From assembly GCF_056746865.1 (NCBI RefSeq), contig NZ_CM163382.1: DNA of 64,000 nt. One strand, written 5' to 3'. Shown piece by piece: positions 50,679-51,987 of this stretch. Under the pieces are notes generated by a model. It saw nothing but the letters and a program-made list of their open reading frames with translations. It searched no databases and was not told where the DNA came from. Both the position numbers and the translations under genes were made by a program. How positions within the stretch are numbered: position 1 is the first letter of the stretch; every line of letters begins with the position of its first letter.

Positions 50679-51987
50679 TGAACCGCCCCGGGTTTCCTGG
50701 AGAGTGTTTTATCTGTGAACTCAGGCTGCCAGATCATCGTTTCCGATGGAAGCATAATAAGCTTTTTCTGCTTCTGCCGGAGGAGTATGGCCCAGCCTTC
50801 CCAGCAATCGTCGATTGTTATACCAGTCCACCCACGTTAGTGTGGCCAGTTCCACTTCTGCACGGTTTTTCCAGCTCTTACGGTGTATTACCTCCGCTTT
50901 GTAAAGACCATTGATGCTCTCAGCCATCGCGTTGTCATACGAGTCGCCTGTACTCCCTGTTGATGCCAGTAATCCGGCTTCTTTTAGTCGCTCCGTATAG
51001 GCCAGTGACACATACTGAGAGCCTTTATCGCTGTGATGGATGGTGCCAGACGGACGACGGGCCCACAACGCCTGCTCCAGCGCATCCAGAACGAATGTCG
51101 TTTCCATAGACGATGAGACCCGCCACCCCACGATGTATCCGGCAAACACATCAATGATAAACGCCACATAGACGAAGCCCTGCCATGTGCTGACGTAAGT
51201 AAAATCAGCCACCCACAGCTGGTCAGGTCGTTCTGCCACGAACTGACGGTTTACGCGGTCGCCTGCGGCAACGGCTTTCCGGCTGATGGTCGTACGGACC
51301 TTTTTACCCCGGAGAACACCGGCAAGTCCCATAACCGCCATGAGACGTGCCACTGTACATCTGGCCACCCTGATTCCTTCCCGTAACAACTGACGCCAGA
51401 CTTTACGCACACCGTACACCTGATGATTTTCATCGTATACGCGCTGTATCTCTCTCTTCAGCCAGTCGTCGTGCTGCGCACGGGCACTGCGTTTATCCGG
51501 ATGATGTCGCTGTTGCTGACAATGGTAATACGTTGACGGGGCAATATGCAGTTCGCTGCATACCGGTCCGACCCCGTACTGCTCACGCAGCTTATCCAGC
51601 AGTGGCATCATTTTTCCAGAGGCGGTCGAACTCCGCCTTCGCAAAATAAGCGGAAGCCTGGCGAAGGATATCGTTACTGCGGCGCAGTTCACGATTTTCA
51701 CGTTCCAGCTCTTTCAGACGCTGACGTTCAGCGCTGGTGAGCCCACCATCACCGCCCCCGGTATCCCGCTCATGCTGGCGAACCCAGACACGCAGAGTCT
51801 CCGGCGTACAGCCAATCTTTGGAGCAATGGAACAAATTGCCGCCCACTGTGAGTCATATTCATCCTGACTTTCCAGAACCATACGAATCGCCCGCTGACG
51901 GACTTCGGGGGAAAAACGAGTATTTTTAGTCATCCTGTTTACCTCTTTCTCAGGGAGTTTAGTCTCCAGGATTTCCGGGGCGGTTCA
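50679..51987 (-). mobile_element. IS629, copy 3 (variant; no target duplication)
   Basis: Same ends as copies 1 and 2; one T fewer in the T-run at the orfA/orfB overlap and one amino-acid change; flanks GTT and AAT differ. Confidence 0.85.

Follow-up and report, generated by a model that had tools for sequence, protein, structure and literature searches.

An IS629 copy without a target duplication in a genomic island: ordinary insertion followed by replacement of the right flank

Results

We found that the third of the three IS629/IS1203-type insertion sequences in the window, the whole 64,000-nucleotide stretch of E. coli contig NZ_CM163382.1 (assembly GCF_056746865.1) that was analysed, descends from an element that inserted normally and made a 3-bp GTT duplication, and that its right side was afterwards replaced by DNA beginning with AAT within yjhD, with the loss of the second GTT, the rest of an IS3-family remnant and the Kiwa genes. 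The most likely route of this replacement, to which we give a probability of roughly 0.55, is homologous recombination between IS copies.

Copy 3 differs from its neighbours in its flanks and at three internal sites

All three elements have the same orientation, with their genes on the minus strand (Table 1). Upon aligning the copies, we observe that copies 1 and 2 are the same in sequence, both at 1310 bp, and that copy 3, which is 1 bp shorter (1309 bp), differs from them at three sites only, which bears out the description of it in the initial annotation as a sequence variant. The boundaries proposed there, 50679 and 51987, are exactly the ends of the element, and these ends fit the family, with terminal inverted repeats of ~25 bp (TGAACCGCCCCGG...) on both sides, as in copies 1 and 2. 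Copies 1 and 2 are bordered by perfect 3-bp duplications (ATA-IS-ATA and AAG-IS-AAG), whereas copy 3 lies between ...CGACTGTT on the left and AATACTGG... on the right, that is, between GTT and AAT, as had been noticed before. A duplication of another length, which could have explained the mismatch, was looked for around copy 3 by eye and by script, and no matching duplication of 2-5 bp was found. A 3-bp match between flanks arises by chance in 1/64 of cases, and since such a match is rare, both its presence in copies 1 and 2 and its absence in copy 3 are meaningful.

Table 1. Coordinates of copy 3, the comparator copies and the neighbouring features in the window
Feature	Position	Strand	Remarks
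IS629/IS1203-type copy 3	50679..51987	-	1309 bp; IRR end 50679, IRL end 51987; terminal repeats located
IS629 copy 1	41705..43014	-	1310 bp; duplication ATA; comparator
IS629 copy 2	45364..46673	-	1310 bp; duplication AAG; comparator
224-aa gene, ECs1377-family protein	49915..50589	-	NCBIfam NF052300, 322.8 bits; PGAP start gives 207 aa; borders the original left flank
GTT, left copy kept from the original 3-bp target duplication	50676..50678	.	GTT-IS-GTT in SMS-3-5, L008 and L013
orfB of copy 3, 296 aa	50721..51611	-	NCBIfam transpos_IS3, 316 bits; +1 frame relative to orfA
Copy 3 SNP, plus-strand IS position 412 C>A	51090	-	OrfB Val174 GTG>GTT, synonymous
ALIL frameshift-stimulating pseudoknot (RF01497)	51537..51652	-	115.7 bits
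orfA variant of copy 3, 113 aa, C-terminus ...WKNDATAG	51592..51933	-	NCBIfam IS3 transposase N-terminal part
A5 run (T5 on the plus strand)	51611..51615	-	1-nt deletion against A6 of copies 1 and 2
Copy 3 SNP, IS position 1146 G>A	51824	-	OrfA Ala37 GCC>GCT, synonymous
yjhD 3' remnant (surface-adhesin E family gene), starts AAT	51988..52166	+	replacement right flank; followed by ythA, nanY, nanX

Upon examining the three sites, we find that both substitutions are synonymous and that the 296-aa OrfB has the same amino acids in all three copies. The amino-acid change in OrfB that the initial annotation had reported, and had used as a sign of age, is thus absent; the changes lie instead in the tail of OrfA and in the frame relation of the two genes. 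The third site is the T run in the orfA/orfB overlap, which is one nucleotide shorter in copy 3, as previously described (5 T against 6 T), so that GGAAAAAATGATG on the coding strand of copies 1 and 2 becomes GGAAAAATGATG in copy 3 (A6>A5). The substitution at 51090 is confined to some of the genomes that share the window's arrangement, SMS-3-5 and L011 being without it, and the Ala37 GCT codon and the A5 run together form the marker pair of the copy 3 lineage.

The shortened run changes the frame relation of orfA and orfB

The domain order is kept in copy 3, with orfA (HTH) followed by orfB (DDE, rve integrase core) and NCBIfam transpos_IS3 matching both ORFs. Through the 1-nt deletion the 108-aa OrfA of copies 1 and 2, ending in ...WKK before the stop codon, becomes a 113-aa product ending in ...WKNDATAG, and orfB passes from the -1 frame relative to orfA to the +1 frame. 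A -1 position of orfB is also found in other IS3-family elements (bioRxiv 10.1101/2023.06.07.543989), and the ALIL pseudoknot is a frameshift stimulator known from IS3411 and its relatives (PMC5009743). ALIL (RF01497) scores 121.5 bits in copies 1 and 2 and 115.7 bits in copy 3, with a gathering threshold of 50. The deleted nucleotide is the single missing column of copy 3 in the Rfam ALIL alignment and belongs to the linker on the 3' side of stem 1, which puts it downstream of the UUUUG shift site, whose placement follows the same alignment and reviews.

When a -1 shift is simulated at UUUUG or at the A run, copy 1 gives a 404-aa OrfAB and copy 3 a product of 108 aa, and frame analysis finds that the -1 relation required for OrfAB is lost in copy 3. 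Because orfB stands in the +1 frame, programmed -1 frameshifting would meet a stop codon at once and yield no OrfAB. We infer from the reading frames that copy 3 would be unable to make its own transposase and, since its ends are intact, would be movable with transposase supplied in trans. Homologous copies in other genomes are labelled by PGAP as 'IS3-like element IS1203 family transposase, frameshifted' (pseudogene). Copy 3 is a member of the IS629/IS1203 family by descent and, judged by its sequence, defective (non-autonomous).

The left flank marks the original insertion site

We compared the flanks with 5,426 complete E. coli genomes by means of junction searches. The left junction of copy 3 is present in at least 29 genomes, among which SMS-3-5 has the same left flank and a nearly identical IS, 1 nt off copy 3 and with both lineage markers. 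The SMS-3-5 right flank starts with GTTTTTAGCC..., giving a perfect GTT/GTT pair, and L008 and L013 are alike in this; the filled target with the same right-hand junction as SMS-3-5 occurs in at least 14 genomes. When the empty site was rebuilt as a query from the left flank, GTT and the SMS-3-5 right flank, the target ...CTGTTTTTAGCC... was found uninterrupted in 4 genomes (99.8-100% identity). In FORC_031, where the site is empty, the target belongs to an IS3-family remnant, with the ECs1377-family gene on one side and intact kwaB/kwaA (Kiwa) on the other.

Upon turning to the right side, we observe that K-12 and strain H9 run uninterrupted across the AAT site, with ...CTACTTTTCCC directly followed by AATACTGGG... 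(TTTTCCC before the breakpoint). Both breakpoints of copy 3 lie exactly at the IS termini. The junction of the IS with AAT occurs in 25 of the 5,426 genomes; 10 belong to the strain-165 type, and the other 15, which are arranged like the window, carry both copy 3 junctions together (99.1-99.9% identity), and the IS copy in AR13438 is identical to copy 3. The comparison of flanks with related genomes, proposed at the outset, thus places the left and right flanks of copy 3 at different loci. Filled sites with GTT on both sides, empty sites and an intact yjhD elsewhere together indicate that the primary insertion was normal and that the right flank was exchanged later.

The initial annotation had suggested that recombination replaced one flank and had linked this to the disrupted upstream region of the adjacent 224-aa gene. 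The replacement itself is upheld by the GTT/GTT relatives and the empty site, and recombination as its cause is likely, with the partner junction in 0 of the 5,426 genomes. The link to the 224-aa gene did not hold, since that side is the original insertion flank and the replaced side is that of AAT and yjhD; the upstream region of this ECs1377-family gene was broken by the primary insertion into the older IS3 remnant and not by the flank swap. Additionally, upon comparing window 34374-57749 with L001, we find that the island lineage of copy 3 is without kwaA and kwaB, which FORC_031 and SMS-3-5 have beside their ECs1377-family gene, and that it retains the type I restriction-modification and RhuM genes.

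Copy 3 is older than copies 1 and 2

The window is collinear with the island of AR13438 except for copies 1 and 2, which interrupt it with clean duplications, and in junction-specific searches the junctions of these two copies were found in 0 of the 5,426 genomes. Since the junctions of copy 3 are shared by other genomes and those of copies 1 and 2 occur in no other genome searched, copy 3 is the older one, as the initial annotation had proposed on other grounds. This holds in a relative sense only, the lineage being 2-3 nt from canonical IS629. The island of the copy 3 type lies beside pheV in AR13438 and a related island at the leuX region in SMS-3-5, and copy 3 is thus a passenger that was inherited with an island spread by horizontal transfer, while copies 1 and 2 are recent and private to the strain.

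Among 10 places examined, drawn from the many that encode a 113-aa OrfA, the marker pair Ala37 GCT plus A5 is confined to three contexts, namely the GTT/GTT sites, the window type and the strain-165 mosaic. We considered whether the A5 allele represents a mobile sub-family and rejected this, because the O157-like copies with a 113-aa OrfA lack the Ala37 marker and carry extra single-base homopolymer deletions. Such O157-like A5 copies have probably arisen through separate slips or through errors in long-read assembly. Their extra homopolymer deletions are found in L009, L012 and L015-L017, for example at IS positions 532-533, 684 and 1004.

Routes to the replaced flank

In the history that we propose, an ordinary transposition brought the ancestor of copy 3 into the IS3-family remnant, in the interval of a defence island between the ECs1377-family gene and Kiwa (kwaB/kwaA), with duplication of GTT. 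The lineage carries the A6>A5 deletion just 3' of the frameshift site, which leaves orfB in the +1 frame and would make movement possible in trans only. Beyond the IRL end, on the right, the DNA was then replaced, which placed the IS end at AAT in yjhD, by ythA-nanY-nanX, presumably through homologous recombination with a second, directly oriented IS629-family copy in yjhD and deletion of the intervening DNA. The new arrangement afterwards spread along with the island (by pheV in AR13438), and copies 1 and 2 are later, strain-private simple insertions of intact IS629.

The strain-165-type IS, found at the same AAT junction in 10 genomes, speaks for recombination between IS copies. This element is a mosaic, in which positions 1 to ~890 differ by a single base from a divergent IS of the SC516 type, which is widespread at another locus and has 116 differences from copy 1, and positions 895-1309 are identical to copy 3, the A5 run and the Ala37 marker included; crossovers inside an element of the copy 3 lineage have therefore exchanged its flanks. 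Copy 3 itself has no internal mosaic, being 1 nt from the SMS-3-5 copy, and the crossover point cannot be placed in it; since both lineage markers are left in copy 3, the partner would have belonged to that defective lineage as well, unless the crossover fell within the last ~160 nt. The partner junction, with the 5' part of yjhD up to AAT followed by the IS (...CTACTTTTCCCAAT joined to TGAACCGCCCCGG...), occurs in none of the 5,426 complete E. coli genomes. In SMS-3-5, no nanXY/yjhD module follows the IS on its right within ~100 kb, and that island ends with nanS-nanM-nanC-fim (leuX region). Strain H9 was considered as a direct parent and rejected: its yjhD is intact and its right flank is 100% identical to the window, but it has no ECs1377/type I restriction-modification module and no IS in yjhD. 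H9 has backbone genes in common with the SMS-3-5 island, and neither of the two, nor any other sampled genome, shows both parental structures in cis.

A transposition-linked replacement of the right flank is possible, though we hold it to be the less probable course. Here the IRL end, cut by a transposase acting in trans, would attack AAT in yjhD on the same molecule, or an IEE-associated aberrant reaction would take place, with deletion of the intervening DNA and a new flank without duplication. Such an event would dispense with an unsampled second copy, in line with the 0 of 5,426 genomes in which the 5' part of yjhD with AAT is joined to the IS, and it fits a junction lying precisely at the IS terminus. 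Furthermore, deletions that go further than precise excision are reported for IS629 in combination with IEE and are explained by 'sloppy' strand transfer to non-IS targets (bioRxiv 10.1101/2023.06.07.543989), over half of the O157 IS629 sites are without a duplication (PMC3271280), and at a nearby scar (56564-56585) an IS629 end meets a truncated gene in a TTCCTG microhomology. However, the A5 run is common to the GTT/GTT genomes and the window type and thus predates the flank swap, so copy 3 was already frameshift-defective at the time and another copy had to supply the transposase, and some carriers have a single IS629-like place. The island and yjhD are in the required cis arrangement in no sampled genome. 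Moreover, the IS3 family transposes through circles (copy-out-paste-in), a pathway that does not normally lead to adjacent deletions.

Three near-identical repeats of 1.3 kb within 10 kb are a classic source of misassembly, and the missing duplication might be put down to a chimeric join across identical IS repeats. This is effectively ruled out, as the same two junctions with the same IS recur in 15 independent complete genomes, the lineage markers of copy 3 are also present in the SMS-3-5 copy, and copy 3 can be distinguished from copies 1 and 2, so that reads would not collapse. Least probable of all is that a duplication was made normally and later worn away by point mutations on either side of the IS. 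Nothing but the missing duplication speaks for this, and the empty-site comparisons refute it, since the two flanks belong to different loci, the left continuing into the IS3 remnant and Kiwa in the empty-site genomes and the right into the 5' part of yjhD in K-12 and H9. Homologous recombination between IS copies remains the reading that we prefer.

Further rearrangements in the window and in related genomes

The window contains a 22-nt terminus resembling the IS629 IRR (TGAACCGCCCCGtGTTTCCTG, 21/22 matching) at 56564-56585, which is fused to a 5'-truncated phosphoethanolamine-transferase gene (ORF 56455-57678). When this gene is compared with its intact paralogue at 59408-60910, homology starts within the common TTCCTG, and the site looks like the scar of an IS629 copy lost together with flanking DNA at the microhomology. 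The truncated gene is annotated at the matching position in AR13438, strain 165 and H9. The TGAACCGCCCC match at 56564 was also considered as a fourth IS copy and rejected, only the 22-nt end remnant being present. Additionally, an IS3-family element is present in the window as two inverted 1704-nt copies that match perfectly (23999-25702 and 28145-29848), with an IS21-family element in between (25703-28144; istA 26503-28044, istB 25742-26491); the frameshifted copy at ~48142-49824 has 95-98% identity to this repeat.

Rearranged junctions of the divergent IS are found in L003 (5975-7287), L019 (4602-5889) and L020 (4001-5286). In the strain-165 and EC25 type, an AAA-protein flank and the terminal 25-nt repeat (with a position-2 G>A marker) are joined to the orfB end of the divergent IS, and in the SC516 type the same AAA-protein flank and repeat are joined to the orfA end. 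This difference in the joined end implies that the IS body is inverted relative to the flank, with the switch within the 25-bp terminal repeat.

Strain 98232 (L007 16359-17669), a close relative of the island, has neither copy 1 nor copy 2. It carries an intact IS629 in or just beside mobI, at the equivalent of window position 47683/47684, and the DNA beyond that IS629 is collinear with window 24230 to 21274, inverted, which suggests another IS629-associated rearrangement. Finally, EC21Z-147, FY10, Z226-7 and MSB1_6C have ~2.27 kb of extra DNA in the stretch equivalent to window 49000-53700; this insert bears the annotation of a group II intron (ltrA reverse transcriptase/maturase) and lies apparently within or beside an IS3-family element.

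Discussion

The missing duplication at copy 3 is the scar of a flank replacement. The replacement removed the Kiwa anti-phage genes, truncated yjhD and brought a defence module (type I restriction-modification/RhuM) together with the nanXY sialic-acid module of the genomic island. With the empty site, the filled site with its duplication, the rearranged site and the mosaic derivative all sampled, the locus offers a worked example of how IS elements remodel E. coli genomic islands. Copy 3 itself is to be annotated as a pseudogenised, non-autonomous IS629/IS1203 copy, with little significance beyond annotation. Telling such an old, inherited copy apart from the strain-private copies 1 and 2 is useful in IS-based typing.

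OrfA-type and OrfB-type products have been reported to damp IS3-family transposition. It is nevertheless improbable that the defective lineage is kept as something useful, be it a brake in trans on the active copies 1 and 2 through the intact OrfB and the new-tailed OrfA, or an element whose A5 run is decoded by a rare +1 or -2 shift. Read-through transcription from copy 3 would point into the ECs1377-family gene.

When compared with IS629, IS1203 and IS3411 (IS3 family, IS51 group; E. coli and Shigella), copy 3 is alike in its inverted repeats, its length within 1309-1310 bp, its orfA/orfB organisation and its ALIL element, and the original insertion of its lineage likewise made a 3-bp duplication. 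It differs in having orfB in the +1 frame, which makes it a pseudogene with respect to OrfAB, and in that the present copy is without the target duplication seen as GTT/GTT at the same element in SMS-3-5, L008 and L013. IS629 makes duplications of 3-4 bp, which were present at only 21 of the 47 sites of the element in four O157:H7 genomes (PMC3271280). Copies of IS629 commonly lack one, and copy 3 resembles the other 26 of these 47 O157:H7 sites in this respect.

As far as they are described in bioRxiv 10.1101/2023.06.07.543989, the IEE-associated IS629 deletions of Kusumoto et al. 2011 resemble copy 3 in their precise ends and in flanks drawn from two loci, a likeness that covers ends and flanks and not host serotype or iee carriage. 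The event at copy 3 is old and has been passed on with a genomic island to diverse strains, in contrast to the recent strain polymorphism of the O157 and IEE cases. When IS copies recombine homologously, the flanks become hybrid and the breakpoints lie at the IS ends, as they do in copy 3, and the strain-165-type mosaic at the right junction of copy 3 documents a crossover inside the element; the left parent (GTT/GTT) is present in at least 14 genomes and the right parent (AAT/AAT in yjhD) in 0 of 5,426. IS-mediated deletions and frameshift-dead copies of IS3-family elements are textbook phenomena. Overall, the history of copy 3 lies within the known behaviour of IS629, an ordinary fate that belongs to already-known biology.
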